DNA of 64,000 nt, taken from Candidatus Latescibacterota bacterium (GTDB lineage Bacteria > Latescibacterota > UBA2968 > GCA-2709665). A program made the translations under genes and the position numbers. The notes below the pieces were generated by a model that saw only the letters and a program-made list of their open reading frames with translations, searched no databases and had not been told where the DNA came from. The stretch spans positions 3,360,001-3,424,000 of the forward strand of contig OZ242180.1 of NCBI GenBank assembly GCA_965205485.1, given 5' to 3'. Positions 13,282 to 64,000 of the stretch are shown one piece after another (within the stretch, counting starts at the first letter, position 1; each line of letters starts with the position of its first letter).

Positions 13282-13411
13282 CGCTTGTTTTGAGAGCGAC
13301 CTTCCAGAGGCCGCTCGATGCATTGATGGGAGAATGGGAGACAGTTTTTAATTAGAGACGATGCCACCATAGGAAGCATTCCTGAACATGTTCGGGCTAC
13401 AAGCTTCAGCG

Positions 13412-13490
13412 TGGATTATTCCCCGAACGTTCGCAGATCTTCGGATCAGGTACGTATTGCCGTGACTGTTCGGTAATACCGTAGTTAGCC
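13412..13490 (+). repeat. degenerate attC-like site (family B)
   Basis: GGATTA...CCGAAC pairs with GTTCGG-TAATACC, ending in core GTTAGCC (13484); right half recurs at 14721 and 58781. Confidence 0.45.
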
Positions 13491-13498
13491 GCAATTGA

Positions 13499-13689
13499 CC
13501 TTGATTCGTCAGTCTTCGGGGACGTTAATTCGAATATGTGCGAGTTAATAAAGGCGATTAGACTGCTGATTACCAGGATACATCAGGTCACTGGACGTGA
13601 AGGGAAAAAATGTCCTTCTATACGTCGATATTGCCCCGTTTCGGAGGGTTTTATCGCGTCGCCGCGTTGCTGTTTATTTCCGATTGAGG
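13499..13689 (+). mobile_element. ~190-bp MITE-like element, copy 1
   Basis: CCTTGATTCG...GATTGAGG ends; flanks TTGA/TTAA; homologous to five other copies. Confidence 0.85.
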
Positions 13690-13796
13690 TTAACAGAGCA
13701 TTGATTTCCAAAGGTAGTTAGACAGCACGAGACAGCCTGTCCGTACTTTTACTGTCCAATTACGACGCAATTCTTACAGCAACACAAGAGGATATA

Positions 13797-14716
13797 ATGG
13801 ACATTTCTACTGAACCGTGCCCTGGGCAGCTACGCCAACACTCTTACGCCGTGGTGCGCGGTTTGTTCGACGCAGCGACGACAGAAAGGCTGCGCGAGAT
13901 CTGTGAGCGAGTGCTGGAACAGTGGCGGCGCGCTCCTCGCTGTGACAATCCACCGGTGGGGCCCCAGGCCAATTACATGAGGCACCTGAACGACCCGGAA
14001 TATCACCGCGATCACCCCGACGATCTTGCCTTTCTGCTCAATGCCATGGGGTCGCCCCAGGTTGTCGAATCGCTGAGCGCAGCCCTGGATGAAGAATTCC
14101 TCTTCGCCTTGAGCAGTCTCTACTTTAATCCGACCGGAGAAAGCCAGGACGGATTTTGGCACAAGGACAAGATCGGTGCAGAAGCAGACGTATCCCGGAG
14201 ACCGGAGACCGGAGCCGGGTTGCAGATGCAAATCGCATTGGTCCCTACGGACGATCTCGAAGTGGTGCCGGGGTCTCACCTGCGTGACTACTCCCCGAAG
14301 AGCACGCGATCTGCGTCGCCGATGATGGGATCCACAACCGCTCGAACGATATGCCAGGCGCCGTTCGTCTCCACCAGGAACCCGGTGACGCGGTGCTGTT
14401 TACCCAGTTGTGCATTCATCGGGGCCGCTATCACACCGACAAGCTCAGGCGCTCGTTGATGATCTCGGTAAAAAAACGGGCCGCCGCAGAGTTCACGATG
14501 CGCCAGCGGGGGCTGAACTACGCCAGTGACCAGCCATGGTTTTTGCTGCCGCAATACTTCGATGGCGTCAGTGAGGATGCGCGAGCGTTCTTCCAGGAAT
14601 TCGTCGGCTTCTACGCCCCGCATTGGCGTGCCCGGCTGACGGAGGTGTTGAAGTACTCGAGTCTGGTACAAAGGCTGGTGGAAGCCGGCGAGCCGTACCC
14701 GTTTTTTGGTGAGTGA
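13797..14716 (+). pseudogene. phytanoyl-CoA dioxygenase (PhyH)-like, frameshifted
   Basis: WHKD and VVPGSH in one frame, PGDAVLF..IHRG in the next; shift at C-run 14293-14296. Confidence 0.75.
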
Positions 14717-14820
14717 GAAGTCTGTCGGTAATTCCGGAGTTATGGGCCATGCGTCCCCAGGCATCGTAGCTGCCGGAAGGGTGCGAAACACCGGAAGCCG
14801 TCCAGAATCAGCAGGAGACT

Positions 14821-15504
14821 ATGACTTCCTTGAATTCCAACCAGGATGGCGCCCGATACGACGGCTGGGCGACGTGGTACGATGAATATCTCAAGATGCC
14901 ATTCTACGAGAACATCCCGGCTCATCTATCGCGTTTGGTTGGACCCGGCTCAGGACTCTGTGTGGACATTGGTTGCGGAACAGGTGTGCATCTCCAGCTA
15001 CTGCAATCGCTTGGCTGGTCCGTGATTGGAGTCGACCTTTCAGCCGACCAGCTTCGACTGGCAAGTGATCGCTCTCCGAGGGTTGTCCAGGCCAATGCGT
15101 GTAGTCTGCCTTTCTCGTCAGCCACGTTTCGACGCGTCGTGTCGGTATTGACACTTACTGATTTCGATGATGTAGGGCCATTCTTCTCGGAAGCACACCG
15201 CGTCCTGGATCGTCACGGGCGTTTCGTTATCCTGGGCACACATCCCTGTTTTCTGGGACCATTTGCGACCATCGAGAGAGACACGGGAATTGCCAGGATC
15301 CATCCGGGTTACCGGGAAACAGCACGAGTTTTCGAAGGTCCTGGATTGGGTGAGGGCATTCGGTCGAAGGTGGGTGTCCGGCACGTTCCTCTTGCCGAAC
15401 TCTTCAACAAACTGCTCGCTGCTGACTTGCGGCTCGAATCAGTTGCCGAATTGGATGGTGACACGCTCCCATCTCTGCTGGCGTTCGTTGCAACCAAAGC
15501 CTGA
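14821..15504 (+). CDS. class I SAM-dependent methyltransferase
   Basis: VDIGCGTG, GVDLS, LPF motifs; SD AGGAG. Confidence 0.9.
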   Translation: MTSLNSNQDGARYDGWATWYDEYLKMPFYENIPAHLSRLVGPGSGLCVDIGCGTGVHLQLLQSLGWSVIGVDLSADQLRLASDRSPRVVQANACSLPFSSATFRRVVSVLTLTDFDDVGPFFSEAHRVLDRHGRFVILGTHPCFLGPFATIERDTGIARIHPGYRETARVFEGPGLGEGIRSKVGVRHVPLAELFNKLLAADLRLESVAELDGDTLPSLLAFVATKA

Positions 15505-15696
15505 CCTTGATTCGTAAGTTTTCAGATGACGTTAATTCGAATATGTGCTTGTAAATAAAGGCGATTAGACTGCGGATTACCAGGATACACCAGGACACTG
15601 TACGTGAACTGAAAAAATGTCCTTCATGACGACCATTTCGTCCTGTTTCGAAGGGTTTCGTCGAGGTACCGCGTTGCGGCTTTTGCGGAATTGAGG
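15505..15696 (+). mobile_element. ~190-bp MITE-like element, copy 2, with 4-bp target duplication CTGA
   Basis: CTGA on both sides (15501-15504, 15697-15700). Confidence 0.88.
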
Positions 15697-15794
15697 CTGA
15701 TTGCTCAATAGATCGACACATCGGGGGAAATCTGAAGGCTTGCGCGCAATCTCTGCACGTTCGTTATTGACTGGCTCAGGATCTCGGAACTGAT

Positions 15795-16592
15795 ATGAAC
15801 CGCATACACGAAGCCAACCGTCAGCTGTGGAATGATCAGGTCGCTATCTGGGAAGAAAGGAGCAACCGAGAAGGTCGGTGGCACCGATGCCACGAAGATC
15901 CTGATCTGGCGTTCGAAGGTGGAGCTCTTCAACTGATTCAGACGTTTACTGGCGGGTTGAGCAACAAGAAGGCATGCGTTATCGGCAGCGGTGACAATAT
16001 GGCAGCGTTCGCTCTTGCAGGCCTGGGTGCGCAAGTTACGTCGACGGACATTTCGGAAGAGCGATTAGCGATGGGGTCACGTAGAGCTGAGCAACTCGGT
16101 CTATCAATCTCATTCGTTCGATCGGATGCCGCTTATCTGGAATCGTTGGCCGATTCGAGCTTTGACCTCGTATGCTCCACAAATGGGTTTTTTGTGTGGA
16201 TCGCCGATCTCGAAGCGGTTTTCTGGGAGGTCGCTCGAATTCTAAAACCCGGTGGCTCTTTCGTGTATTTTGATATCCACCCATTTCAGCGACCATGGAA
16301 GGACCAGGGGATCCCAATTGAGATGGAAAAGTCGTATTGATCCACAGGTCCATTTCAGCCGCGAGATAGAGACTCTTATGAATTCCACTGGACTTTGGCT
16401 GACCTTTTGAACCCAATGGCTACGGGGGGACTGATGTTGGTCAAGGTCCTGGAGCGTCCGGCTCGCGACACACGGTATTGGAAGGAGTCCTCTCAATGCG
16501 ATGTTGAGGACGAAACCATCATGGATTGGAGTGAGAATCCCCGAGCTGGACTCCCCGTATGGCTGACCGTTGCGGCGCGTAAGACAGTTTAG
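15795..16592 (+). pseudogene. SAM-dependent methyltransferase with in-frame TGA
   Basis: ORFs 15795-16340 and 16395-16592 share a frame; TGA at 16338-16340 probably replaces TGG. Confidence 0.8.
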
Positions 16593-16612
16593 CGGGAGAG
16601 TCGAGAAACGTC

Positions 16613-16711
16613 GTGCAACAGCACGGTTTTCGCTACGGCGCTGGACGCGCCTGGGTCCTGTCGGACAACCCCTCGCCAAGCTCGGGTTCGCAAACCGGCG
16701 AAACGTTATAT
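16613..16711 (+). repeat. attC-like site (family A)
   Basis: GTGCAAC ... CGGTTT/AAACCG stem ... GTTATAT. Confidence 0.7.
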
Positions 16712-16783
16712 GCCATGGCAGTTTTGACACTGTTGTGAGAAGCAAGAGGGACAGACCGTACCTGGAACCTCCTGAGATGGTCA

Positions 16784-17074
16784 ATGTCCGAGATAATTGA
16801 GCCGCTCAGCGCAGATCGGGTGAACTGGTTGGCGGAGGAGTTTGCCAAGCGCGCCTGTTCGAAATCGGATGGATACTTCGCACAATGCTTTGACGCGCAG
16901 GAACGCGGGGAGATGATCGTCCTCGTTTCCCGAAACGGCGAAAAGCTCTTGGGATTCCTGAAAGTAGTCTGGAGTCAGACGTACGAGCCGTTTCGTGATC
17001 AAGGCATCCCAGAAATTCAAGATCTCAATGTTGTGTCAGAGGCAAAACCATCCCCACACCAGTGGGCTATCTAA
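16784..17074 (+). pseudogene. GNAT acetyltransferase, C-terminally truncated
   Basis: IPEIQDLNV followed by an abrupt loss of the expected RxxG motif A. Confidence 0.65.
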
Positions 17075-17190
17075 TAAGGCTGGGCGCAAAAAGCGCTTTG
17101 GTTTCCGCCCGATTCAAGTTATATTTTGGGAAATAGTTGTATTTGTTTGGCTTAATGGATATTTTCGAGCGAAGGATCGGAGGCCATTAC

Positions 17191-17493
17191 ATGTCTGCAA
17201 AGACGCTAGACCAGCATATTGAGACAACTCCTGGCGTTTCAGGAGGAAAACCGCGCATTGCCGGGCATCGTATTACCGTGCAAAATATCGTGATCTGGCA
17301 TGAGCGGATGGGAAAAAGCGCGGACGAAATTGCGACAGAATATGACCTGACCTTGGCGGACATTTATGCGGCATTGAGTTACTATTTTGATCACCGTGAT
17401 GAGTTGGACCGGGATATAGAAGAAAGTGAGGAATTCGGTGAAACATTACGCCGACAAAGCCTTTCCCGACTGAAATCAAAGCTCCAGGAATAG
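17191..17493 (+). CDS. DUF433-type antitoxin
   Basis: PGVSGGKPRIAGHRITV...EIATEYDLTLADIYAALSYY; SD GGAGG. Confidence 0.88.
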   Translation: MSAKTLDQHIETTPGVSGGKPRIAGHRITVQNIVIWHERMGKSADEIATEYDLTLADIYAALSYYFDHRDELDRDIEESEEFGETLRRQSLSRLKSKLQE

Positions 17494-17500
17494 GAGCCAC

Positions 17501-17830
17501 ATGGCTAAGGTCAGATTCTATACCGATGAACACGTCTCGAAGGCTGTGGTGATGGGATTGCGCCAAAGGGGAGCAGATGTTCTCACCGTTAGTGAAGCAG
17601 GTCTACTGGGCGCCTCAGACGAGGAACATTTGAGGAAGGCACGGGCAGAAGGACGGATTATTTTCACTCAAGATATCGATTTCTTACGCCTGTCTGCGGC
17701 AGGCATCGAGCACACAGGGATCGTCTACACATCTCAGGTCACTACGACAGGCGGTATTATCCGCGGTCTTATGTTGATTTATCAGGTCTTGGAAGCGGAA
17801 GAAATGGAAGGTCACATTGAGTATTTGTGA
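17501..17830 (+). CDS. DUF5615-type PIN-like toxin
   Basis: FYTDEHV, GASDEEHL, GRIIFTQDIDF, HTGIV; paired with DUF433. Confidence 0.85.
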   Translation: MAKVRFYTDEHVSKAVVMGLRQRGADVLTVSEAGLLGASDEEHLRKARAEGRIIFTQDIDFLRLSAAGIEHTGIVYTSQVTTTGGIIRGLMLIYQVLEAEEMEGHIEYL

Positions 17831-17926
17831 CGACTTAATGCAGAGGTCTGAGAGAGAAAAAAAAGGGAAAACAGAGGGGTGATGGTCGCCCCTTCTTTAT
17901 TTTTCTAATGACAAAAACGGCACTCC

Positions 17927-18023
17927 GTCTAACACCAAACTCCCGGCTGCGGTCGCTGCGCTCCCTCCGACCCAACCATTCCTCGTTCCTCGGTCGGGTT
18001 CGGGAAGCGGCAAGACGTTATGT
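17927..18023 (+). repeat. attC site
   Basis: R'' GTCTAAC, TCCCG/CGGGA stem, R' GTTATGT. Confidence 0.8.
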
Positions 18024-18055
18024 GAAATGCATTTTGGACAATTCTCGAACGCAGG

Positions 18056-18850
18056 TTGACGTTGATAGTCCAAGATCTACCATACCCGGTCCAAGCCCAT
18101 CTGAAGGGTTTCGTCTCAAATGGCGACAATCTCAGGACTGAATCGTGCGCCGATGTATTTTCATTTGCGCACCCGAGCAAGCAGGGTTTGTTCCTCAAAA
18201 TCAGAGATACGCTCGCTGCGCCACAAGAATCAGATCTTCGTGCCGAAAAAGCGGCCATATCCTGGTTGCACGACAAACTGAGTGTGCCTGGCATGGTCTG
18301 CTTCCACGAGGAAGACAATACTCAGTATCTGCTGATGACCCGAATCGCTGGCGTCTCTGGTGTCCACGAAGACGCCACGACAGATATCCCTGGTCTGATA
18401 CGTCTGTTCGCTCATGGACTTCGCGAGATTCACGCAGTTCCAGTCGATTCGTGTCCATTGAATTGGCGCTTTGAACGCTATTTTGCGTGGGCGACAGACC
18501 TGATTGATTCAGGAGTGCTGGATGGTCAGATCCCCGAAGGCGGCACCAGAAATGTCCTGCGGGATGAACTGGCAGGCATACAAGCCGACCTGCCGCCAGA
18601 AGACGTGGTGTTCACCCACGGGGATTATTGCCTTCCCAACATCATAATCCTCAATGGCCACCTGAGTGGCTACATTGATTGGGGTTATGCAGGTATGGGA
18701 GATCGATATCTCGACTTTGTCGCCGCGTACAATACCATTCGCAGAAATCTGGGTGGGAGGTGGGTTTCCTTGTTTTTTCGAGAGTATGGACAAGAATTGG
18801 ATCCGGCCAAGTTGAGCGTGTATCAAAGGATCCATGACTTTGTAGACTAA
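18056..18850 (+). CDS. aminoglycoside 3'-phosphotransferase-like protein (gene cassette)
   Basis: LFLK, LREIHAVP..CP, FTHGDYCLPNI, YIDWG..G.GDRYLD; start uncertain. Confidence 0.8.
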   Translation: MTLIVQDLPYPVQAHLKGFVSNGDNLRTESCADVFSFAHPSKQGLFLKIRDTLAAPQESDLRAEKAAISWLHDKLSVPGMVCFHEEDNTQYLLMTRIAGVSGVHEDATTDIPGLIRLFAHGLREIHAVPVDSCPLNWRFERYFAWATDLIDSGVLDGQIPEGGTRNVLRDELAGIQADLPPEDVVFTHGDYCLPNIIILNGHLSGYIDWGYAGMGDRYLDFVAAYNTIRRNLGGRWVSLFFREYGQELDPAKLSVYQRIHDFVD

Positions 18851-18866
18851 GAGGGAAATAGCGCAC

Positions 18867-18942
18867 TTCACATAACCCGTCCGTCCCCGGCTTCGGGCAT
18901 ACTCCCTTCGCGCAACCTCTATTCCTGAACTTTAAGTTAGCC
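18867..18942 (+). repeat. attC site (left half intact, right half altered)
   Basis: TTCACATAAC is the exact reverse complement of GTTATGTGAA at 18017; next core GTTAGCC at 18936. Confidence 0.75.
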
Positions 18943-19044
18943 GCAGTCTCTCCCACCAATTAAGCCTCATACATCAAAGGCTGTGAATTTTACGTTGCCT
19001 TTCTACAGGTTTCGTTAACAGGATCATTACATAAAGAGGACTAA

Positions 19045-19428
19045 ATGTCGAACCCGGAAAATTGGAAAATAACAGCTACAAGACCAGTCTTAATCGTCTC
19101 TGATATTGACCGTGCGGTTGATTATTACACCGGTATTGGCTTTGAGGAGATATTTAGAAATGATGTCGTTTACTCCGTTTTGAGTATGGATGAACATATC
19201 ATCCACTTGGGAACGAAGATGGGTACCGGTGCAGGTTTGTCGGCAGCAGTAGTCGAAATGAGCGGTGTTAATGAATATTTCGCTTTCCTTAGCCGACGAA
19301 ACGTCAGAATCCACCGGGAACCAGCAGATCAATTCTACGGAATGAGAGACTTCCAGGTGATGGACCCGGATGGCAATATTATCACTTTTGGGGAGCCATT
19401 GAAAGACAGCAACACGGTTTCTGAGTGA
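19045..19428 (+). CDS. VOC/glyoxalase (bleomycin-resistance-like) protein
   Basis: PVLIVSDIDRAVDYY, YGMRDFQVMDPDGN. Confidence 0.88.
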   Translation: MSNPENWKITATRPVLIVSDIDRAVDYYTGIGFEEIFRNDVVYSVLSMDEHIIHLGTKMGTGAGLSAAVVEMSGVNEYFAFLSRRNVRIHREPADQFYGMRDFQVMDPDGNIITFGEPLKDSNTVSE

Positions 19429-19584
19429 TGTCTTCAGATATCGGGATCTTGTCAACTTGCGGTCAATTTACAAGCCCGAAAGCTGTTTTTTGCTTGACGG
19501 CCAGTCAATCGTCAAGAAACGGCCCTGAATTCTGTTTCTGTACCAGGTCCAGTACAAGTACATCCTAACCGAACATGCGATTAA

Positions 19585-19775
19585 CCTTGATTCGTAAGTC
19601 TTCGGGGGCGATAATTCGAATATGTGCTTGTAAATAAAGGCGATTAGACGGAGAAAACCCAGGATACACCAGGTCACTGGACGTGTAGGGAAAAAACGTC
19701 CTTCTATACGTCGATAGCGCCCCGTTTCGGAAGGTTTTATCGCGTCGCCGCGTCGCTTCTTTTTTCGGATTGAGG
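19585..19775 (+). mobile_element. ~190-bp MITE-like element, copy 3
   Basis: Same ends and core as copies 1-2; flanks TTAA/CTGA. Confidence 0.85.
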
Positions 19776-19781
19776 CTGATC

Positions 19782-20730
19782 ATGCGGTATCGCCGCCTGG
19801 GAAGAACAGAACTGCAGGTCTCGGAACTCAGTTACGGTGCGGCACGGGGCGCGTCGCAGGACCGGGCGAAGTTCATTGCCACAGTACACGCAGCGATCGA
19901 GAGCGGCGTCAACTTCGTCGACACCGCCGCCGACTACGGCAACGGTGACAGCGAGAGCGCGCTTGGGCGAAGCGTTGCGGGGCCACGACCCTATCATTGT
20001 CGAGACCAAGTATCAGCCTTACGATGGCTGGGGCGGCGATGCGGCATACACGGGTTCAGCGGCGGCATTGACCTCCTCTGCCGAGGAGAGCCTGCGCCGC
20101 TTGCGCCGTGATCGTCTTGATATTCTTCTCGGCCACGGCATACGCACGCTCGAATCTCTGGACCGTTTTATGAACGATGGCTGCTACGAGGCCATGTCCA
20201 GGCTGCGTGAGCAGGGCAAGGTCCGGTTCATCGGTATCAGCGAGCTCTCCACGGTTGACGGAACACACGAGATCCTGAAGCGCGCGGTTCCCACCGGCGC
20301 CCTGGACGTGGTCATGCTCACGATCAATTTTCTGCTGCAAAACGCGGTGGAATCGGTACTGCCGCTGTGTGCCCGGCACGACGTCGGCACGGCGGTGATG
20401 ATGCCGCTGAACCAGGCGAGCCACGAGTCCGGTCTGGTCAGTGTGCCGGCGGCGCTGGAGTGCGTGCGGCGGCATGTCGCGGCCGGTTATCTGCCGTCCC
20501 GGCCGCCGTACACGGATCCGGACCTGTTTGATTTCCTGAAGCCCTACAGTGTGCCCGCTGCGGCGCTGCGCTTCGTGCTCGCGCAGGACGTGAGCACATG
20601 CTGTGTCGGGACCCGCAGGCCGGAACGGTTTCGCGAGAACCTGCCAGTGGTTGACCCGCCGTACCTCGATACACCGCGGGTGGAGAAGCTGCGCGAACGC
20701 TTCGGGCGAATTCATGGCCACGTAAGATAG
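19782..20730 (+). pseudogene. aldo/keto reductase, frameshifted
   Basis: YRRLGRTELQVS, DTAADYG..SE in one frame; TK, GKVRFIGIS in the next; extra G at 19965-19967. Confidence 0.8.
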
Positions 20731-20782
20731 GCGGAATGATGAAGACTTCTGCACCTTCATGGGCATGCCGGGAGCGCGGACA

Positions 20783-21757
20783 ATGAAGATCCTGCAAGTC
20801 ACATCGCCGCGCGAGTTCGAGATTCTCGACGTCCCGGTTCCCCAGCCCGGTCCGGACGAGGTGCTGATGCGTGTCACGGCGGTCACGACCTGCCCGCAGT
20901 GGGACCTGCACCTGCGTCACAACGACCCGATGTTTGTCGGCCGTGCATTCCACTACCCGTACACGCCGGGCAAGCCCGGCCACGAAGCCGTCGGCCGGAT
21001 CGAGGCTGTTGGGGAACGTGTGGCAGGTTTGAAGGCAGGTGACCGCGTGTGCGCCTGGCGCGATAGCGGCGATGGGCATCACGGTTGCTATGCGCAATAC
21101 GTCGCGATCGACGCGGCAAGAGTCATACGCGTCCCCGGAGAATTGCCCGACGAGGCGCTGGCTCCACTCGAACTGGCTATGTGCGTAGGCGCCTGCTTCC
21201 GGATGCTGCGCGATATGGACGCAATCCTGGGCCGTTGTTTCGGCGTCTGCGGCCTGGGCCCGGCCGGACTGGTGGCGCTGCAGATGGCCAGAGCCGAGGG
21301 CGCCAGGGAAGTATACGGGTTCGACTTCATATCTGACCGCCGCGCCATGGCCGAGCGTCTCGGCGCGGCAGGTTGCTACGACCCGCGGGCCGACTTGTCG
21401 GGGAAGTTCCCGGCGCGGCCGGAACGGCCAAAGCTCGAGTCGGCCGTGGACTGCGTCGGCGCGAAGGCGTCGGTGGAGTTCCTCATGGACCGGACTCAGG
21501 ACGCCCTGGCCCTGTTCGGCGTGCAGCGCGAAGACTACACGTTCAGCCCGCGGCATTATCGCGGGCTGCGGCTGTGCGGGTACAAGGGCCACTCGCGCGA
21601 ATCGGCCGAGTATGCGCTCGACCTCATCCGCCGCGGCAAGCTCAACCTGGCCGCGCTGGTCACGCACAAGCTTCCGCTCGAACGCTACGCTGAAGGCGTA
21701 GACCTTTTGGAGAACCTTAAGGCCGTCAAAGTCTGTTTCCTGCCGTGGGAGGAATGA
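20783..21757 (+). CDS. zinc-binding alcohol dehydrogenase family protein
   Basis: PGHEAVG, GLGPAGL, THKLPLE. Confidence 0.9.
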   Translation: MKILQVTSPREFEILDVPVPQPGPDEVLMRVTAVTTCPQWDLHLRHNDPMFVGRAFHYPYTPGKPGHEAVGRIEAVGERVAGLKAGDRVCAWRDSGDGHHGCYAQYVAIDAARVIRVPGELPDEALAPLELAMCVGACFRMLRDMDAILGRCFGVCGLGPAGLVALQMARAEGAREVYGFDFISDRRAMAERLGAAGCYDPRADLSGKFPARPERPKLESAVDCVGAKASVEFLMDRTQDALALFGVQREDYTFSPRHYRGLRLCGYKGHSRESAEYALDLIRRGKLNLAALVTHKLPLERYAEGVDLLENLKAVKVCFLPWEE

Positions 21758-21792
21758 AACTGATGGGAAATTGGCGATAGAACCCGGTATCG

Positions 21793-21890
21793 TTCTGACA
21801 GTCCACGGGGCATCAAGCTTCTTCGATTCTTGCGGAAATGTGCTGAATGCTTTCTATTGCGAGCGTCTCCCGCGGGCTTGCAGGTTGGGC
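21793..21890 (+). repeat. degenerate attC-like site
   Basis: TTCTGAC, AGTCCACGGG/CCCGCGGGCT stem, GTTGGGC directly before the next gene. Confidence 0.5.
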
Positions 21891-21899
21891 GAGGGAATA

Positions 21900-22643: not shown

Positions 22644-22694
22644 CCCATTCACCGGTGCAGATTCAAGAAGCTGCGCTTCCATAGGACAGATATC

Positions 22695-25565: not shown

Positions 25566-25570
25566 TTAAT

Positions 25571-53329: not shown

Positions 53330-53346
53330 CGCAGGCAGCACATTCA

Positions 53347-54279: not shown

Positions 54280-54296
54280 ATGTTCCTGGCGACAGC

Positions 54297-54394: not shown

Positions 54395-54422
54395 GCCAGA
54401 CAAGAGGGCAATCCCGAATTTG

Positions 54423-54614: not shown

Positions 54615-54636
54615 TTAGGCTTGGGAGAATCTGACG

Positions 54637-55407: not shown

Positions 55408-55462
55408 ATGTGGTCCGCAGGTCTCGCGCTGCTCGCAGATTGACTACCAACGGGGTCATGTG

Positions 55463-56215
55463 ATGGGAAGCATTGTCGCAATAGGTGGCGGAGACATCAC
55501 CAGCCTGGCAACCCGGCTCATCGACGTGGAAATCATCAAGCTGTCGGGATCATCGAATCCAAACGCCCTGTTCATCCCGACGGCAAGCAGCGATTCGGTC
55601 GAGTACTGGGAAGCATTCGACAGAGCGTATCGAGAGAGCTACGGGTGCGACACCGACGTGCTCTACCTGCTTGGCAAAACGCCATCGCCGGGGTTCATCG
55701 CCGAGAAGATCGACCGGGCCGACATCGTCTACGTCGGAGGTGGAAACACGCTCAAGATGATGCGCCGATGGCGGCGGCTAGGTGTCGACGCCTTGCTCAG
55801 GGCGGCTCATACGGACGGCGCGGTCCTCTGCGGCGTGAGCGCAGGAGCGATCTGCTGGTTCGACCGTGGGCACAGCGACTCAATATCCTTCTATAGCCCC
55901 GACGATTGGCGCTACATAGCCGTCACCGGCATGGGACTGCTGAGCGGGCTGGCGTGTCCTCACTACAACAGTGATACCGCTGGCGTACCCAGAAGGCAGG
56001 ACTTCCACGATATGCTGAAGCGAAAGGGTGGAAACGGCCTCGCCATCGATAATGACTGCGCCGTCGCGTTCACGCCGGACGGGTACAGGGTCATCTCCGC
56101 CGATGCCGAATCCGGAGCCTGGTCGCTCCAGGTTCAGCGAGGCCGGATCGTCGAGCGCGCTCTGCCGGTTTCTCCAGTCTATCTCTCAATTGATTCCCTT
56201 TACGAAAGGCAGTAG
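55463..56215 (+). CDS. peptidase E (S51) family protein
   Basis: AIGGG, FIPTAS.D, YVGGGNT, GVSAGA, CPHY. Confidence 0.9.
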   Translation: MGSIVAIGGGDITSLATRLIDVEIIKLSGSSNPNALFIPTASSDSVEYWEAFDRAYRESYGCDTDVLYLLGKTPSPGFIAEKIDRADIVYVGGGNTLKMMRRWRRLGVDALLRAAHTDGAVLCGVSAGAICWFDRGHSDSISFYSPDDWRYIAVTGMGLLSGLACPHYNSDTAGVPRRQDFHDMLKRKGGNGLAIDNDCAVAFTPDGYRVISADAESGAWSLQVQRGRIVERALPVSPVYLSIDSLYERQ

Positions 56216-56319
56216 CCTACGTCCCGCGGACTCGTTATCAATAAGAATCTGTTGCAAGATGCGACGGAAATCCATTTGGGAGTTGCCTGACTGACGCCGT
56301 CAAGACGTGGAGAAGATAT

Positions 56320-57270
56320 ATGGCGGTTGGACCTGAGTATCTGGAAAAGGGGTTGTTGGGACTGAGCCGAGCTCACCTTGTGGATACCATGACAGGACAT
56401 TTGGGCGCAACCCTCGTCGCCGGCTATCTCTTCAGTGAGGAACACGGTGAACTGGACAGGAAGGTTCATGCAGGCATAGAGAAAGAACTGGATCGTGTCC
56501 TCAATGGAGAGTCGGTATTCGACCCCGGCGAAGGTGGATCCATCACAACGTCGGAACTGTTTGTGCCGTACCCGGACGAAGCCATGCAGGTAGATCAGAT
56601 TGACCGCATCGCAGAGGTCCTCTCCAGGAACATTGGAGAAACACGCTCCTCGGGTCACAACGTGATTTTCGCCTCTCTGTCCATTCGGGCGCTTCAGGAG
56701 TACCCCCAACACGCAACATCGTCCATCATCGATGGCATATGCAGATTGATCGGGGGCTTTGACCGGGCATCGGCTGGCAGCGGTTACTACGGGAGGGAAA
56801 AGGGTCGGATCGACGGAGACATGATCGTGTTGCCGGAACAGTCGGATTTTCTGCCGTATTCCAATCTGGAGGGCATGATCGAAGCGGTGTTGGATGAGCT
56901 CCTTGAGACAGCTGCCGAACGGAGACAGGGATTCGGGGGATTGTGGCACATTATCAACCATGCCGCTTCGCTGATCGATCTTTCTGAGTGTGGCTACGTT
57001 GACCTGGCGCAGGAAGGACTTGAGGCTCACCATCGTCATGTTCGTCTGTGGAGATCCCTGCCGAATGTCGAGGACGAACTCGGGACGGAAGCGCCGGCTG
57101 AAGAAGATCCTTGCACCCCGATCTATTGGGAATCCGGCGCCCTGAGAAGAGATCGCGCCAGGCTTACTCATCGGATTAAAACGCTCTATGGTTTCCACAG
57201 GTTTGCCCGTCTGGTTGATGATACAACCAGGCTCCAGCGTGCCAGGGATGCGTTTCGCTATCTCATGTAG
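56320..57270 (+). CDS. hypothetical protein (His-rich motifs)
   Basis: 316-aa ORF with SD GGAG; GHLGA, SGHNVIF, WHIINH, THRIK. Confidence 0.75.
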   Translation: MAVGPEYLEKGLLGLSRAHLVDTMTGHLGATLVAGYLFSEEHGELDRKVHAGIEKELDRVLNGESVFDPGEGGSITTSELFVPYPDEAMQVDQIDRIAEVLSRNIGETRSSGHNVIFASLSIRALQEYPQHATSSIIDGICRLIGGFDRASAGSGYYGREKGRIDGDMIVLPEQSDFLPYSNLEGMIEAVLDELLETAAERRQGFGGLWHIINHAASLIDLSECGYVDLAQEGLEAHHRHVRLWRSLPNVEDELGTEAPAEEDPCTPIYWESGALRRDRARLTHRIKTLYGFHRFARLVDDTTRLQRARDAFRYLM

Positions 57271-57285
57271 GAGACAGAAATACCG

Positions 57286-58728
57286 ATGCCCGCTCCTGAG
57301 TTGAAGAGGGCTGTAGAAGCAGCCGTAAAGGCCATCGACGCCAACGATACCGCTCGCCTGGAGAGTCTCGTTGCGGAGTACCCGGGTCTGCTCACGTGGT
57401 ACAATCCGGACGACGAGTGCGGCGTTCTGCTTTACGCCGCCATTTCGTATGCCAACTTTCCCGGCGCCGAGAATGAAGGCGTCTACAACCGGCCCGACTG
57501 TGCCCGCCTTCTGCTTGACGCTGGCGCGGTTATGCATCCCCGGGTGTACTTGAGGGCGATCGACACCGGCGCCCACGGCATGCTGGCATTGTTTGACGAG
57601 AAGGGCGTACTGCCGGAAAGCCTTCGAACATTGACCGCGAGGGGCGATCTCGAAAGCGTGCGGGGATGTTTCGACCCTGGCGGTGTCCTGTCCGACGTCG
57701 GACGACCACAGGCGGAACTGCGCACCGGGTACTCCGGCGCCGAGGCGGACTGGCCCGATCCCGCGGATGATCGGCTGATCGTTGCCGACGCGTTTCTCTA
57801 CGCCTGCCGGCTGGGTCATCGCGACGTCGCGCACTTCCTGATGAGTTGTTGCCTTCAGCTCGACGACGATCTCAGGACAAGGGTGGAGGCATGGCAGGGG
57901 AAGACGGCCTTTGTCGACTTCCTTCTGGAACAGCGGCCGGAGGGGGGAAGACAGGCGTGCTCGTACCGGGAGGTGGACGACGAACCCGGCCTGATCTGGC
58001 GTAGGGCCGTGGAACTGCGCCTGCTTGCTGCCCTGGACGAGGGAGACGCGGAATCCATCCGAGATCTGCTCGCGACCGAACCCTTTCTCCTGGGACCCCG
58101 CTATCTCGAGACCCAGGAAATGCTGCTTGCAGTTGCGGCCTGCACCGAAGGAAAACTGCCGGTGATCGAAGCCGTGATCACGAGCGGAGCGGCCATCACC
58201 ACTGCGCCTGAACCGCCGGCGTCTCGCGCCATCCTCTATGCTCTCGAATACGGGAATGCTGACTATGTTCCGGCCCTTTCTCAAATCTGGTCCGTGCCTG
58301 ATGATCTGCCCCACGCCGCCGGTCTTGGCGACGTGGAAGCTGTCGCAAAGAGGTTCGCGAACGGCTATCCGAGGTTGGGCGATCCATCCCTGTATGTCTG
58401 TCCTCCCGGAGAAACACCATTGGCCGGCGTTCAGGAGATCGTCGACAGGGCCTTCGCCTGGGCGGTGCAGAACGGGAACTACCCAATCGCGGACTATCTC
58501 CTGGATCACGGCGCGAATATCAACACCAGATGGAGTACCCACGAGCCAGCCAGCATCCTGCACGAATGCGCGTTCGCCGGCCGCATGGAACAGGTGGTAT
58601 ATCTCGTTCGCAAAGGGATCGACGTGACCATCAGAGATCATCGACACAACGCCACGCCGGAAGACTGGGCAAGGTACGCTGGACATGAAGAAATCGCCGA
58701 ATATCTGGCAGGATTGAAGGGTAGGTGA
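57286..58728 (+). CDS. ankyrin-repeat protein
   Basis: AVQNG...ADYLLDHGANIN, LHECAFAG...LVRKGID...TP.DWA. Confidence 0.85.
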   Translation: MPAPELKRAVEAAVKAIDANDTARLESLVAEYPGLLTWYNPDDECGVLLYAAISYANFPGAENEGVYNRPDCARLLLDAGAVMHPRVYLRAIDTGAHGMLALFDEKGVLPESLRTLTARGDLESVRGCFDPGGVLSDVGRPQAELRTGYSGAEADWPDPADDRLIVADAFLYACRLGHRDVAHFLMSCCLQLDDDLRTRVEAWQGKTAFVDFLLEQRPEGGRQACSYREVDDEPGLIWRRAVELRLLAALDEGDAESIRDLLATEPFLLGPRYLETQEMLLAVAACTEGKLPVIEAVITSGAAITTAPEPPASRAILYALEYGNADYVPALSQIWSVPDDLPHAAGLGDVEAVAKRFANGYPRLGDPSLYVCPPGETPLAGVQEIVDRAFAWAVQNGNYPIADYLLDHGANINTRWSTHEPASILHECAFAGRMEQVVYLVRKGIDVTIRDHRHNATPEDWARYAGHEEIAEYLAGLKGR

Positions 58729-58857
58729 TGTATGGTGGGTTTGCCCAATTTTCCTGGTTCATCCAACCAGAAACGAATTTCCGTGGCTGTTCGGTAATGC
58801 CGCGGCTATGCCAATGCGCGCTGAGTGAGTTTGCCGCCCAGCCCCAAAGGAACATAT

Positions 58858-59871
58858 ATGACAGCAGAAGCAAGACCGGACGAGAGCACCGATGGAAAGA
58901 TAATGCATGCGGCAATTCAAAACGGTGACCGCGAGGCAATTGCGCGTTACCGTAACGCGTTCCCGATCCTCGAGCCCTTCAGCGATGCGGCTATTCAAGA
59001 AGGTGCGACGCCGCACAACTGTTCCATCGCTCTTGCCCGTGAACGTGGGTTTGAGGGGCCATTTCATCTTAGTCGATGCTTTTCGGAGAACATCCCTGTC
59101 GCACCCCGCGAGACGTTTGAAGCGCTTAAAGAAGCGGTAAAGGCGTTGGATCTCGACACTGTCGCCGGGATCCTCGATGCGTTTCCCTATCTGGCGAGGG
59201 CACGGGTCTACAAAAAGGAGCTTGGCGTCGAGCGTGGGGCGTCACTTCTGCATCTGGCGATGCCACGATGGGCAAAGGACGGCGGTGACCAGACGACCGA
59301 CCAGCACATTGCGATGGCGTCACTCCTGATCGATCGCGGTACCCCAATAAACACGATCGGGGATGGCGGCGAGACGCCACTCGGTTACGTTGGCTGGCTG
59401 GGTATGAAACGATTCGCCCGGTATCTGTTTGAACGCGGCGCCGACCCCACCGTGACTACCGAGTGGGGCTTCGACGCGCTCGGCACCATCGCCGACCACG
59501 GTCACGTCGAGCTCATGGAGATCTTCGCAGGGGCGGGCGTCTCGTTGACACCCAGGCATCTCGTCCAAGCGCAGATGACCGAACGCCTGGATGCGCTGGA
59601 GGACGCGGATCTACATGCGAGATGCAATATCGGCCACTTTGACGGAGAACGAGGCACGTTGATGCACGTTGCGGCAAACGAGAACCTCCCTGCGATGGTC
59701 GAGTACCTGCACATGCGGGGTGTTTCGCTTGACGACCTGGACAACTTCGGTCGCTCACCAGCACAGTTCGCCGTCGAACGAGACAGGCTCGAGGCGTTGC
59801 GCGCATTAGCGGACTGCGGTGCGACGCTCGATGCCGAGGCAATCCGGTTCCTCGATGATCGAACGTCTTGA
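58858..59871 (+). CDS. ankyrin-repeat protein
   Basis: SLLHLA, GETPL...LFERGADP, TLMHVAA, GRSPA..A. Confidence 0.85.
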   Translation: MTAEARPDESTDGKIMHAAIQNGDREAIARYRNAFPILEPFSDAAIQEGATPHNCSIALARERGFEGPFHLSRCFSENIPVAPRETFEALKEAVKALDLDTVAGILDAFPYLARARVYKKELGVERGASLLHLAMPRWAKDGGDQTTDQHIAMASLLIDRGTPINTIGDGGETPLGYVGWLGMKRFARYLFERGADPTVTTEWGFDALGTIADHGHVELMEIFAGAGVSLTPRHLVQAQMTERLDALEDADLHARCNIGHFDGERGTLMHVAANENLPAMVEYLHMRGVSLDDLDNFGRSPAQFAVERDRLEALRALADCGATLDAEAIRFLDDRTS

Positions 59872-60068
59872 GATGCCTTCACGCCATATCCGCGTGGATT
59901 GCAAAGCTTCCGGGAGGCAGACAGGGAGAATGGAACTATGATATCAGACTCAGTGTGGAAACCAATCTCAGGCTGATTCTGGATGCTGGCTTTTCTGACT
60001 GTACGATACAATTCGATCAATCAGACAACGGTTCTGACGCCCATGGCGTTCTTCAAGCCCATGTATGA
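59868..60068 (+). pseudogene. methyltransferase C-terminal remnant
   Basis: WNYDIRLSVETNLRLILDAGF resembles the fragment at 35946-36185 (-). Confidence 0.45.
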
Positions 60069-60244
60069 TCGAACCGACAGCGCTTGCGGCTCCTGGCGTC
60101 CCAGCCCTTTTCCAGCTTGCCTGCGGCAAGTTCTCCGGACGTTTCACGCAAGGGCTCTCTGGCGTGAATTGGTGCAAGACAATACCGTGGCAGCCCTGAA
60201 AAACCATATTGCAACCTGTAACCGCGTGGGCGAGATCCTATTCA

Positions 60245-60751
60245 ATGTCTCGTGAAATCGGACCGGGAACTCACCTGTATTGGTCGGCGAAGTCCGGCCT
60301 TTGCTCCGGAACCGTTGTAAGGCCCGGAGACTTCAAGAACTATCTGATGCGTCAGGTCCTGATCGAAGTCCAAACGGGCTCTCCCGCGGTAACGGTTCCA
60401 AATGCCGCCGAGACAGGTCGTGCGATGTTGGAACTCGCGTGGGAGACCGTTCGGCAACGGGGATTTCCAAATAGGCCAACTCGGTTTGAATGCCTCTTTC
60501 TCTGGCCGGAAGCGAGTGCGGCCAGACGATTCGACTCCCACAGGGAAGCGTGCGAACTGTATGATGTCGAGATTCTTGAATGCTCGCGCGCGTTCACTGC
60601 TGATATGAACCTGATAAGTTACTTCGAAGCGTCGGAAACCCTTGCATCGATGTTCGAGAGGGCGCGAAGATACTGGCAGGCCGAGCGGAAGGACGAGCAC
60701 GGAGAGATTCTGTTGGAAGGGACAATTCGGATTCAGGGGACGATCTTTTAG
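60245..60751 (+). CDS. DUF2441-like protein
   Basis: ELAWETVR...FPNRPTRFECLF, RYWQ, EILLEG. Confidence 0.65.
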   Translation: MSREIGPGTHLYWSAKSGLCSGTVVRPGDFKNYLMRQVLIEVQTGSPAVTVPNAAETGRAMLELAWETVRQRGFPNRPTRFECLFLWPEASAARRFDSHREACELYDVEILECSRAFTADMNLISYFEASETLASMFERARRYWQAERKDEHGEILLEGTIRIQGTIF

Positions 60752-60878
60752 ATGAAAACCGGGGTTGGCTGCCGGCTGCGCCGCCTTGTCCATCGGCGAC
60801 TCGCTCAGTGAGATCGAAGGGCGCGGCGACGATACAGGTAGTGGGAAGAGAGAATCTACAATACTTGAGGAAGTACCT

Positions 60879-61778
60879 ATGAATTACGAGTTCAGGCTCA
60901 ACTGCGGGCTCTTACGCTTGTTTGACGAGTTTGATTCCTCGCCGGATGAGTCGGCGCCTCGCTTCCAATATGAACTCTCGCATCCTGAGCTCGAACGTCT
61001 GCGCGAAGAATATAGCCTTGATCAGGTTGCGGGAGGAGGAGACGAGTGGTCAAAGGTCCTGAACTTGATGCAGTGGATGTCAGAAGGCGTATGCCACAGA
61101 GGCGACATAACCAAATCACGGCCCGAAGTCTGCGAATCGCTGCCCATGAACGCTTCGGGACTTTTGAAATATTCGTTCGGCAAAGGCGAGGACTGTGGCA
61201 TCAACTGCTACATGCTGTCTATCGTGTTGACAGAGGCCTGCCTGTCTCTGGGGTTGCCGACCCGAATCGTGTCACTGAATCCCTTGAATCCATACGACTA
61301 CGACAATCATCTGGTTACGGTGGTTTGGTGTGCTTCCCGCTCGAAGTGGGTGATGGCTGATCCTTCGTACAACGCGTATCTGCGTGACTCTGACGGACTT
61401 GTTCTGAGCCCATGGGAGACCAGGGATCGCCTTTGCCGACACGAGACCATTTTCTGCAACGACGAGCTGAGCCACAATGGAGCCAGGTACAGCTCAGAAG
61501 ACTATCTGACTTACCTGGCGAAGAACCTGCTCTACATGCACTCCCCATGCTTCAACGGCTTCGGAAGCGTTACTTCAGGGAAGACGTGGCTCACGCTGGC
61601 CCCGAAAGACCTGGACGTCTGCAAGCGTGAGACATACAACCTGAAATGGCGTGAAGAGGCCGAAAGCGGGAAATGGGAGAACGAGGAACTTCAGAGTCTT
61701 CTTGAGAGACGAAGGTTGGCGGGAGGCCACGCGGTCACGTCTTCTGTCGCGTCTTTTGCGCAAGCGCCTAAAGGATGA
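60879..61778 (+). CDS. transglutaminase-like domain protein
   Basis: GINC..LS..L.E, DNHLVT, KWVMADPS (C-H-D triad). Confidence 0.82.
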   Translation: MNYEFRLNCGLLRLFDEFDSSPDESAPRFQYELSHPELERLREEYSLDQVAGGGDEWSKVLNLMQWMSEGVCHRGDITKSRPEVCESLPMNASGLLKYSFGKGEDCGINCYMLSIVLTEACLSLGLPTRIVSLNPLNPYDYDNHLVTVVWCASRSKWVMADPSYNAYLRDSDGLVLSPWETRDRLCRHETIFCNDELSHNGARYSSEDYLTYLAKNLLYMHSPCFNGFGSVTSGKTWLTLAPKDLDVCKRETYNLKWREEAESGKWENEELQSLLERRRLAGGHAVTSSVASFAQAPKG

Positions 61779-61916
61779 TTCGGATCACTGCTGTCCAAGA
61801 ACCGTGGGAATCTTGCAGATAGGGTCCGAAGAGTGGATTCGATTCGTGATTTTGGACGTGTCTGATCAGGATAACGGAAACAAGGTTGCCATCGGTCGTT
61901 GTTTGCTGCAACGCAA

Positions 61917-62136
61917 GTCATTCTGAGCGCAGTCGAAGCATCGTTCGCGGCTTCAGTCCCGCGTTGGGGGCGGACGTGCTGCCTCTTGGGTATTGAAACG
62001 TGCAAAACGCGCGCGGATGCCCCGATGCTGCAGTAGATCCTTCGTCGGCCAGGGTACCGGCCCCGGATGGCAGTCTGATGTCGAATGAAACCGATGCATT
62101 TCGCGGACGTTGCACCCAGGCCTCCTCTGGATGACA
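61917..62136. repeat. REP-like element homologous to 47579-47742
   Basis: GTCATTCTGAGCG..GTCGAAGC...CCGATGCTGCAGTAGATCCTTCGTC...CTCTGGATGACA. Confidence 0.75.
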
Positions 62137-62207
62137 GTCCTTGCCAACGCCTGACCGACACATTTCGCCACCTGAATGTAAGCGGAAACAGCCAGTTGAG
62201 AGAGCAA

Positions 62208-62999
62208 ATGAGCCACCCGAAGGCATCCATAGCTACCTCCTTTGCATACGACTGCCCACTTGAGGATTTGCTTCCCTTGATAGCTGAGGCAGGATTCACG
62301 CATGTTTCGCTTGGAGCACAAGAGCCACATTCGAGCTACCTTGGAGACGCGAGGAGATCCGGTTTGCGGAATCTCCTGCTTGACTGCAACCTGCAAATGG
62401 ACACAATTCACGGCAAACCACTTCACCTTCCCCAGGCGCATTCGACCCTGGCCGCCACGGTAGAATCCGCGGCCTTTCTCGATGTGCCGACGGTCGTGGT
62501 ACACGCCGGGCCATTCGTCCTGGAGTCCAGGGAGATGCATGAACACCTCGAGGCGGCTCTCGCCACCTGCGAGGCTCTGACTTCAATCCTTCGGGATAAC
62601 GGAGTTAAATTGGCACTTGAGAATGTGCATCCCGGACCCGCCACGGATCTTGTACGACGTGTTCTTGACAGTCTGCCTGGTGACGTTTTCGGGTTTTGCT
62701 ACGATTCTTCACATGATCAAATAGGAGGTCCGAAGCCCTTCACATTGCTCGGGGATATGTCAGATCGGCTTCTGGCGCTTCACTTGTCAGATCGGGTCCG
62801 GGAGTATGTTGACCATGTCATTCCCGGCCATGGGTTCATTGACTGGGAGAATCTGTGCGGGCGTATCCGCAACACCGATTACGGTGGGCCAGTAACACTT
62901 GAGGTTCTGACCGAACATTCGAGGGTGAAGGAGAGGAAAGAGTTCGTGAGGTTGGCTTTCGAGCAAGCCGCGAGGCTGTACAATCTGGCCTTTGCGTAA
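62208..62999 (+). CDS. sugar phosphate isomerase/epimerase (xylose isomerase-like TIM barrel)
   Basis: LALEN, FCYDSSH, LHLSD, H..PG.G.IDW, YGGPVTLE. Confidence 0.88.
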   Translation: MSHPKASIATSFAYDCPLEDLLPLIAEAGFTHVSLGAQEPHSSYLGDARRSGLRNLLLDCNLQMDTIHGKPLHLPQAHSTLAATVESAAFLDVPTVVVHAGPFVLESREMHEHLEAALATCEALTSILRDNGVKLALENVHPGPATDLVRRVLDSLPGDVFGFCYDSSHDQIGGPKPFTLLGDMSDRLLALHLSDRVREYVDHVIPGHGFIDWENLCGRIRNTDYGGPVTLEVLTEHSRVKERKEFVRLAFEQAARLYNLAFA

Positions 63000-63081
63000 G
63001 GAAGAAGGCATGCGAAAGGGAACTTCGTGTCCAATTCGACGATGGGATCTGTTCTGCGCGCGCTGAAAGGCAGGCAAAACA

Positions 63082-63936
63082 ATGTCGCTAAACAAGCATG
63101 ACATATGGGCGGACCTGAGGTATGCCCTTGATGAACTGGATAGGCCCTCGCGCGACATACGTAACCGCTTGACTGATGCTGCAAACTTAGATGCACAATC
63201 TGAGAATGAGTTCTTCAATAGACTACTTCTGATTGCACAACTCTCCTCAGCATACTCAAAGGCAAGGGCAAGGGCAGACACGAGGAATGCTCACGAAGCA
63301 ATCGAGAAGGGCCTAAAGGCGATTCTGATAGACGGTGGCCTGTCAGAGAACCACGTTCGTTCTCGCGGGCACGAGCTACACCGACTGTTGGCGGATGTTC
63401 AACAACATAACCCAACGGCATTCAATGAATTAGAGCGGTGTTTTGACAGTACGATCCAATATCTGGAGAGCGTCACAACCATCCAGCACACCACAAACAT
63501 TGTTGACTATTTTCGGAAACACGGCAAAGCGGAAATATTCGTAGCAAATAGGTACGGGAGTATCGACGGAAATAACAACAAGCATGGGATGATTCACTTG
63601 GTCTATTGTGAAATTATCCATGTGCTATTGTCGCTCATATTCGGCTGGACTCCCAAGGACGTAAATTTCCGCATCGAGGAAGAGGCAAGAAAAGCAGTAT
63701 TGGCCGATAGCAAACTTGACCCGGCGTGGGACGCAACGGAGTGGTTGATTCGGGGGCCCGTTCGCCCGCGACTGGAAGCCATCGAAAACCTGGAGAACAA
63801 TAAAGTCCTCCGCGCTTCCGTGAGGAGGTGTGCGAGGGAATCTAAGGATAGCAGGATTAAGTATTGGGCTAAAGGGCTCAGGTACAAACTCTTCGAAGCG
63901 AGAAGTAAGGCGCGAGCTGAGCGCCGGGATGGGTAG
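63082..63936 (+). CDS. hypothetical protein with HEPN-like segment
   Basis: AHEAIEKGLKA...RGHEL..L resembles HEPN helices. Confidence 0.6.
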   Translation: MSLNKHDIWADLRYALDELDRPSRDIRNRLTDAANLDAQSENEFFNRLLLIAQLSSAYSKARARADTRNAHEAIEKGLKAILIDGGLSENHVRSRGHELHRLLADVQQHNPTAFNELERCFDSTIQYLESVTTIQHTTNIVDYFRKHGKAEIFVANRYGSIDGNNNKHGMIHLVYCEIIHVLLSLIFGWTPKDVNFRIEEEARKAVLADSKLDPAWDATEWLIRGPVRPRLEAIENLENNKVLRASVRRCARESKDSRIKYWAKGLRYKLFEARSKARAERRDG

Positions 63937-64000
63937 ACTTCGATATAAACGCGATCTCCGGCATCGGATTAAAACTCAAAGAAGCCTTGAAGCGGGACGG

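Follow-up and report, generated by a model that had tools for sequence, protein, structure and literature searches.

The window analysed here is the whole 64-kb stretch G000:C1:3,360,001-3,424,000 of the closed 5.13-Mb genome of a Candidatus Latescibacterota bacterium, most of which is occupied by the head of a long array of gene cassettes. Left of 13.3 kb lie core genes (a cytochrome oxidase operon, DNA polymerase B and a peptidoglycan-binding protein); from there onward the G+C content drops from 61.0% to 56.5%, and all of the 48 genes found between 13.8 and 63.9 kb are on the + strand, with the single exception of higA (HTH_3, 37489-37803). An original prediction, made from the letters alone, had described this region as about 50 short unrelated genes on the + strand, separated by imperfect hairpins, and had interpreted it as attC sites grouped together without an integron integrase (CALIN). 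The number and orientation of the genes agree with that description, but the median size is 265 codons, seven genes of 48 exceed 400 codons and two pairs are paralogues. The cargo (methyltransferases, APH-family kinases, VOC and GNAT proteins, a DUF433/DUF5615 pair) is integron-like, as named originally. It had also been stated that no tyrosine recombinase open reading frame (ORF) lies at 13.3 kb; there is indeed none, but a remnant of a recombinase gene and an attI-like site are found there. The junction between the core genes and the array is organized as follows:

10292..12502, - strand, DNA polymerase B-family gene (Pfam), the conserved left flank of the array within the genus, adjacent to the array in congeners
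12502..13281, + strand, membrane protein with a peptidoglycan-binding domain, the final core gene ahead of the recombinase remnant and the attI-like site (the platform)
13303..13355, + strand, 3'-terminal piece (16 codons plus stop) of the gene for an insertion-less tyrosine recombinase, 85% identical in nucleotides to the 3' end of a near-whole gene in G011, with the same frame and C-terminal residues
13356..13486, + strand, attI-like segment with the core GTT-CG-N11-GTT at 13468-13486 and a putative crossover at G|TT, 13484-13486
13484..14726, + strand, first cassette, encoding a PhyH-family dioxygenase, directly after the attI-like site
13484..64000, + strand, cassette array with 48 genes inside the window, extending to ~3.55 Mb of the genome

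Passages of PMC4889954 define IntI, the classical integron integrase, by an extra domain, define CALIN, and note that recombinases without this domain are rarely found beside canonical attC sites. In the relevant part of Escudero et al. (PMC7790495), the corresponding helix, I2, is described as docking extrahelical bases and blocking the second strand exchange. Recombinases that lack this insertion are called insertion-less here.

At the orthologous place in G011 a near-whole, frameshifted recombinase gene separates the peptidoglycan-binding gene from the array and reads in the same direction as the cassettes. The window retains the 3' end of this gene together with the 130 nt behind it, while the remainder has been deleted. 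Truncation at this place, in every case from the 5' side, has left at least six different end points of the gene (those of G013, G003, G008, G010 and G006, plus one common to the window, G014 and G002), and a public contig carries an even deeper cut that still spares the core. The attI-like segment is present in 12 of 14 congeners, in up to eight copies per genome. Its aligned copies diverge immediately after TA-GTT (13484), as those of an entry site would, and different cassettes stand behind it in different genomes, which suggests an entry function. One motif, (G/C)TT-C(G/A)-N-GTT, adjoins 13 of 16 insertion-less recombinases, its triplets being spaced by 12-14 nt (12 in seven, 13 in four and 14 in two). 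A promoter scan of 13250-13800, made for the sigma-70 type only, gave no match. A second copy of the attI-like segment is found deep inside the array:

58744..58805, + strand, decayed attI-like copy, 71% identical to 13423-13481; in G014 its downstream gene stands after an attI copy

Arrays of relatives contain 2-4 such inner copies, some of them preceded by up to 270 codons of recombinase tail, and this combination of inner attI copies with tails of variable length suggests that whole platforms have arrived or been duplicated repeatedly.

No tyrosine recombinase ORF was found in the window. The search of the rest of the genome for intI, proposed with the original prediction, returned only two Xer-like genes, which group as Xer and score under the integron-integrase cut-off; tblastn detected no intI remnant in the genome, and IntI is absent from all 15 genus genomes. 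Intact genes of this kind are present within the order. The nearest intact orthologue of the remnant is a 376-aa protein of G049 (clade support 100/99); behind its gene lie the same attI-like motif and cassette sites of the family described below. The IntI insertion is absent from all aligned array-head recombinases; the catalytic residues are conserved, the scores fall under the TIGR02249 integron-integrase cut-off, and the closest solved structures are VchIntIA, followed by XerA. Sites of the family lie within ~5 kb of 14 out of 16 insertion-less recombinases, nine of which were noticed through nearby sites, whereas seven were fetched blind, with sites found for five of these seven.

Most copies of the recombinase possess an extra N-terminal HARP-like domain and are oriented with the cassettes. 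This domain scores 22 bits against Pfam HARP (the SMARCAL1 type; cut-off 25), 32 of 103 homologues reach E<=0.01, and PDB 4o66 is matched at E=0.11; fold searches with a model of pLDDT 69 and a protein atlas returned no name for it. HARP-less recombinases occur in G016, G101, G106 and G107, where, as classical intI does, they face away from the array. They form one clade (FastTree support 1.0, nesting 0.875, with G106 represented by a 72-residue piece), which heads dense, well-kept arrays of the same sites, and the G107 copy looks intact. Since this clade heads the same sites, the HARP-like domain is not needed for the pairing of enzyme and site, which weakens the simple idea that it replaces I2. 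Multicopy 283-aa recombinases near the arrays of G020 and G017 were considered as array enzymes and rejected, as each precedes an IS91-type transposase (IS, insertion sequence); this transposase is found behind the IS copies of G020 and G017 and is absent behind the array-head copies.

The cassette sites were studied with a covariance model, R1, built from sites of other genomes and containing no G000 sequence. A total of 78 distinct sites were taken from the arrays of relatives, and 62 of them, 79-95 nt long, were aligned for the model, while 16 shorter or longer ones were excluded. Thirteen sites had been predicted originally as imperfect hairpins. R1 matches seven of them strongly (28-57 bits, E 2e-13 to 4e-5) and three weakly, all on the same strand. 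The hairpins are branched rather than simple. R1 gives no match at 21793, 29231 and 60070. The site at 29231 has no support and that at 21793 is likewise unconfirmed, whereas 60070 can be recognized as a decayed site because its cassette follows intact sites in G008 and G001. The sites and their possible remnants in the window are:

16613..16711, + strand, branched attC-like site, R1 37.4 bits; the minus strand folds better
17927..18023, + strand, branched attC-like site behind the DUF433/DUF5615 pair, R1 35.1 bits; its downstream cassette follows a different site in G016
18870..18942, + strand, decayed site with the left half retained, R1 16.6 bits, profile positions 32-84
21792..21890, + strand, possible decayed site, no R1 match; stem offset 4, like the family, and homology to G003 begins at its GTT
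26665..26759, + strand, branched attC-like site, R1 30.6 bits
27544..27657, + strand, branched attC-like site with a long interior, R1 28.0 bits
34182..34260, + strand, possible left half-site behind a NUDIX gene, found by eye, no model match; orthologues of the gene in G009, G010 and G012 precede a site
37369..37451, + strand, branched attC-like site ahead of the higA cassette, R1 36.6 bits; the cassette follows other sites in G006, G012 and G014
45695..45766, + strand, site remnant with the right core retained, 9.0 bits, near the background of 9.2
46364..46437, + strand, branched attC-like site, the best preserved of the window, R1 57.4 bits
47300..47399, + strand, decayed site, R1 14.8 bits; better preserved in G006
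51650..51738, + strand, branched attC-like site, R1 36.4 bits; the next cassette follows an intact site in G015
54297..54386, + strand, decayed site, profile 14.3 bits, with a partial covariance-model match of 8.6 bits
60070..60147, + strand, decayed site ahead of the DUF2441 cassette, no R1 match; the cassette joins intact sites at GTT in G008 and G001

With leave-one-out matrices, five of eight tested window sites outscore all matches in the reversed 5.1-Mb genome; the exceptions are 26666 (six background matches), 54297 (one) and 51650, which failed. Only about one quarter of the spacers retain a site. Genome-wide, with 150 of 3,434 candidates scored, R1 recovers six sites of the window plus a further one at 1,782,437; past the window it finds only weak matches of at most 19 bits over 100 kb, and then background. 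The sites thus decay with distance from the head of the array. The Rfam scan matched no family. Two other approaches were abandoned: a rule-based scanner for canonical attC gave noisy output and recovered no window site, and a profile trained on the very sites of the window, being circular, served as a lead only. The match at 1,782,437 belongs to a one-gene unit far from the array (G000:C1:1782437-1783320), in which a small gene is accompanied by an attI-like copy and by the family site that is best preserved in the whole genome (75 bits).

A window site runs from a core ending in YAAC through 12-13 nt, an interior, an inner AACC..GGTT hairpin and CG followed by 13-14 nt, to a core GTT. In the fold predicted for the minus strand, AAC is paired with GTT, and a G-T pair prolongs this pairing (60 of 62 sites); about three pyrimidines are looped out, and a 9-bp stem carries two hairpins. 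Within the alignment of 62 sequences, changes on both sides affect 16 of 25 pairs (258 cells of this kind, compared to 82 in shuffles), eight of the nine stem pairs covary, and the signal is lost when the partners are slid against each other; the sites were preselected for pairing and arm length, so that the rate of pairing is no evidence, while the variety of pair types is. The 9-bp stem can form on either strand (64 and 65 of 78 sites). The minus strand folds better, with lower energy, in 66 of the 78 and would be the one used by the enzyme; the conserved top-strand A/C mismatches beside the core turn into G-T pairs on this strand only, and the bulged bases are pyrimidines on it in 229 of 234 cases. 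The distance from GTTCG to GTT in a cassette site is 15-16 nt, and the opposite, paired arm measures 12-13 nt. Folding would therefore give a cassette site the spacing of double-stranded attI, GTTCG being conserved in both.

These sites differ from those of classical integrons. The stem offset is 3 in 55 of 78 family sites, as compared to -1 to 1 in 8 of 13 canonical attC from IntI loci, a difference partly built in by the selection of sites; and instead of the canonical near-symmetric central spacer and extrahelical base in the L box there is an unbroken 9-bp stem. R1 yields 229 matches in 884 kb at 45 array loci, a count that includes the training sites and four G000 loci. It yields none in 841 kb at 80 loci from the IntI search (a few of which are not IntI), and none at two further IntI loci. 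Conversely, a sequence-only canonical profile finds 16 sites in IntI loci, seven of them held out, and has no match in the window or in the family arrays. This reciprocal specificity indicates a separate site family. A strict pattern for the right half of the site occurs in strand-coherent clusters in 26 of 41 related genomes, with one match in the reversed control, and in 60 of 168 genomes of the phylum, where the control gave eight single matches. IntI was found in only 17 of these 168 genomes. In metagenomes the pattern scan found true family sites at 7 of 79 loci, none of the seven with a recombinase. The G017 IntI locus proved of little use as a source of training sites, as it is broken up by IS elements.

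The contents of the array have been rearranged among relatives. Forty-five of the 48 window genes have orthologues in the relatives' fetched arrays, in changed order. The PhyH cassette stands directly after attI in the window, G001, G002 and G010, and after two different cassette sites in G013, with the junction at GTT. Four more cassettes (APH at 18017, higA, the methyltransferase at 51732 and DUF2441) follow other sites elsewhere, with homology starting from GTT. No excised circle was found among public contigs, which cannot show absence. A model made from relatives matches far above background, the fold is common to the sites and covaries, and gene order differs between congeners; the opposite outcomes had been named as grounds for giving up the original prediction, and none of them occurred. 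Its picture of an old chromosomal array that has a site family of its own and no functional integrase is borne out, as is the erosion, seen in sites that fade outward and in insertions of mobile repeats. Its assignment of the array to a lost IntI is not the most probable one, as the lost enzyme appears to be an insertion-less relative and the sites fail both the geometry and the profile of canonical attC.

Judging from sequence comparisons, we consider it quite probable that the window is the head of a decaying cassette array built by an insertion-less recombinase, which would have joined cassettes at G|TT, most likely via folded minus strands. In the folded site AAC would pair with GTT, with some three pyrimidines looped out below the 9-bp stem and its two hairpins, and the inner GTTCG would then come to lie 12-13 nt from the crossover GTT, as in double-stranded attI, so that one recombinase dimer could read both attI and cassette site. 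New cassettes would enter at attI and push older ones outward, where these would lose their sites; in the genus, the recombinase would have been cut back to varied end points with attI always spared, and the array would be eroded by miniature inverted-repeat transposable elements (MITEs) and deletions. The integron-like layout and the swapping of cassettes are observed, and the chemistry is what we infer. The array is likely frozen, because the genome holds neither IntI nor an intact copy of the insertion-less recombinase. With somewhat less assurance we favour a broader view, namely that this is a second class of integrons, in which I2-less recombinases shuffle cassettes via branched single-strand sites, with the geometry of attI provided by a 3-nt bulge and with an optional HARP-like domain. 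Such a class would be present in one third of the phylum's genomes, may correspond to the ancestral state of IntI, and would leave orphan arrays that are invisible to IntI-based tools or misfiled by them.

Several observations weigh against this interpretation. None of the 15 genus genomes searched contains an intact insertion-less recombinase, so the link to this enzyme rests on other genera; no family sites lie near the recombinases of G021 and G043, and the backbone of the recombinase tree is not resolved. In G017 and G097, IntI coexists with the insertion-less system, but the two are not adjacent. The pattern by which the relatives' sites were picked fixes the arm lengths and hairpin ends, so that the geometry is partly built in; the control for canonical sites, a sequence-only profile made from 16 of them, is weak. 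Only 6 of the 48 genes, as judged with a profile of lower sensitivity, are bounded by a site or attI on both sides in relatives, 22 on one side and 20 on neither; many block boundaries between congeners do not fall at GTT. Much of the reshuffling is therefore attributable to deletions, duplications and MITEs.

The same insertion-less recombinase may instead have acted on double-stranded or cruciform sites, or with a host factor, by an Xer-like second strand exchange. Its lack of the helix that in IntI docks the extrahelical bases and blocks the second exchange, as stated in part of PMC7790495, would fit such a mechanism, as would the presence of XerA among its nearest solved relatives and a 9-bp stem that forms on both strands. 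We regard it as unlikely, since the stem is free to vary in sequence while its pairing is kept, the mismatches by the core become pairs only on the minus strand, and the spacing equals that of attI only with the bulge looped out. A classical CALIN, built with divergent attC by an IntI that was once adjacent or acted in trans, and with the insertion-less recombinase as a passenger, appears improbable. It would account for the cores (RYYYAAC and GTTRRRY), the cassette layout and the cargo; IntI does exist in the phylum, in two genomes alongside family sites (G017 and G097), and Cury et al., in a passage of PMC4889954, held that recombinases near attC that lack the IntI domain are not IntI. On the other hand, no family site was found at the 82 IntI-type loci, tblastn found no intI remnant in the genome, the stem offset is 3 rather than the 0-1 of canonical sites, and in four families it is the insertion-less gene, together with a conserved attI-like motif, that directly heads the array. 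Least credible, to the point of being nearly dismissible, is an ordinary variable island, whose hairpins would be terminator-like or similar to repetitive extragenic palindromic (REP) repeats and whose genes would be reshuffled by MITEs and homologous recombination. MITEs are enriched in the region, REP-like repeats are present in it, and many breakpoints lie off GTT. Yet the sites are all on one strand, one per gene in relatives, with fixed cores; they cluster behind the recombinase, and homology between genomes begins exactly at GTT.

Compared to known systems, the array shares with classical integrons of the IntI type its length and uniform orientation, the AAC/GTT cores, an entry site beside the recombinase, the putative G|TT crossover, a bottom strand that folds better than the top one, toxin-antitoxin cargo and the outermost position of the oldest cassettes. 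It differs in the recombinase without the IntI insertion, in branched sites whose R' arm has a 3-nt bulge, in the GTTCG conserved in sites and attI, and in several attI copies per array. Since two features that define IntI integrons are lacking, the array is not a member of the IntI family. In layout it resembles CALIN, as outlined in portions of PMC4889954, in having at least two cassette sites with no integrase gene nearby and a lost recombinase (route iii of that paper); in contrast to CALIN, the window sites fail the canonical profile, and the lost gene, not being intI, would escape the intI_Cterm pseudogene search. In G017, canonical-looking attC are found near IntI and branched sites behind the insertion-less enzyme.

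The insertion-less enzymes resemble the 'Integron-like' tyrosine recombinases of Smyshlyaev et al. (10.1101/542381, PMC8138268), which in the sections concerned have Phage_int_SAM_4 and Phage_integrase domains without the insertion and are placed near IntI; those sections list IS91- and IS3-linked proteins in this subgroup and give no cassette role. The array-head recombinases share 43-50% identity with their IS91-linked counterparts in the same order. Unlike the IS91- and IS3-linked members described there, they have an attI-like site and a cassette array behind the gene and no IS91 transposase, and most possess the HARP-like domain. The intact G017 protein passes the NCBIfam model NF040815 (recomb_XerA_Arch, 'site-specific tyrosine recombinase/integron integrase'; 225.6 bits against 220). 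This is a naming model, and an IS91-linked protein reaches 219 bits, so the two groups are not separated by it. We found no description of cassette arrays run by insertion-less enzymes in the literature covered, outside which lie subscription journals. The nested deletions sparing attI, the equal spacing of attI and the folded site, and a divergently placed HARP-less clade with the same sites are new points. The I2 insertion has been regarded as the invention that enabled integron chemistry and serves as a marker for calling integrons. If our interpretation is correct, there is an alternative way to recombine folded single strands, the origin of integrons becomes testable with living intermediates, and cassette arrays are undercounted across phyla (the strict pattern occurs in 60 of 168 phylum genomes, IntI in 17). 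The window copy is a relic that shows how a platform dies, with the enzyme lost and the entry site kept; the intact loci of G049 and G107 are better material.

Erosion of the array is seen in a 191-nt MITE, of which the window contains six copies:

13499..13689, + strand, 191-nt MITE in the leader of the first cassette, with empty sites in G001, G002, G010 and G013
15505..15696, + strand, MITE copy
19585..19775, + strand, MITE copy
25385..25565, + strand, MITE copy with an internal deletion
32967..33090, + strand, partial MITE copy
54423..54615, - strand, inverted MITE copy

The element has imperfect inverted ends and 4-nt YTRA target duplications, with matching 4-nt flanks in 10 of 18 full copies. 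It is found at 46 genome loci, often at stop codons, and nine of the 46 fall in the region, where 1.6 were expected. Its ends resemble, we presume, those of the IS1380 family; no full-length parent element was found in the genome. The empty sites and the 4-nt duplications rule out the 191-nt repeat as a long attC or attI. Repeats of other types are also present:

24848..24993, strand unassigned, second short repeat of 146 nt, with 44 near-full genome copies, absent here in other strains
47563..47716, + strand, repeat with a second copy at 61901-62054, not a cassette site, of a type with ~20 genome copies

A further repeat lies at 53271-53335, and we take all three to be REP-like. Frame breaks were found in 13797-14716 (PhyH), 15795-16592 (the second methyltransferase) and 19783-20730 (an aldo-keto reductase). 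They are absent from most or all of the public contigs covering these genes, and some of them may therefore reflect faulty assembly or differences between strains instead of decay.

Among the remaining observations, a 57-nt cassette leader (27651-27707) is common to otherwise different cassettes in several genomes and may be promoter-bearing or derived from a toxin-antitoxin module; an earlier identification of the first cassette of G011 with that at 27651 was withdrawn, as only this leader is common to both. In G020 a 363-aa transposase-like ORF directly follows the GTT of a family site twice (L148:15646-15690 and L157:10518-10616), which suggests an IS that targets family sites. The two pairs of paralogues mentioned above, 34478-35853 with 39118-40430 and 26831-27454 with 37859-38578, have no Pfam family, and the second of these families occurs again downstream, at genome positions 3,466,714 and 3,524,899. 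SAICAR synthetase is usually a core purine gene; a gene resembling it lies within the array (29534-30586) and travels with it in congeners. Three genes carry predicted domains resembling those of aminoglycoside phosphotransferase (18056-18850), beta-lactamase (23600-24755) and aminoglycoside adenylyltransferase (50210-50764). PADLOC matched none of 13 cargo proteins. Public RNA runs contain 5-7% of the words of the stretch, and the public runs that carry it are, where the habitat is named, mostly sponge metagenomes.

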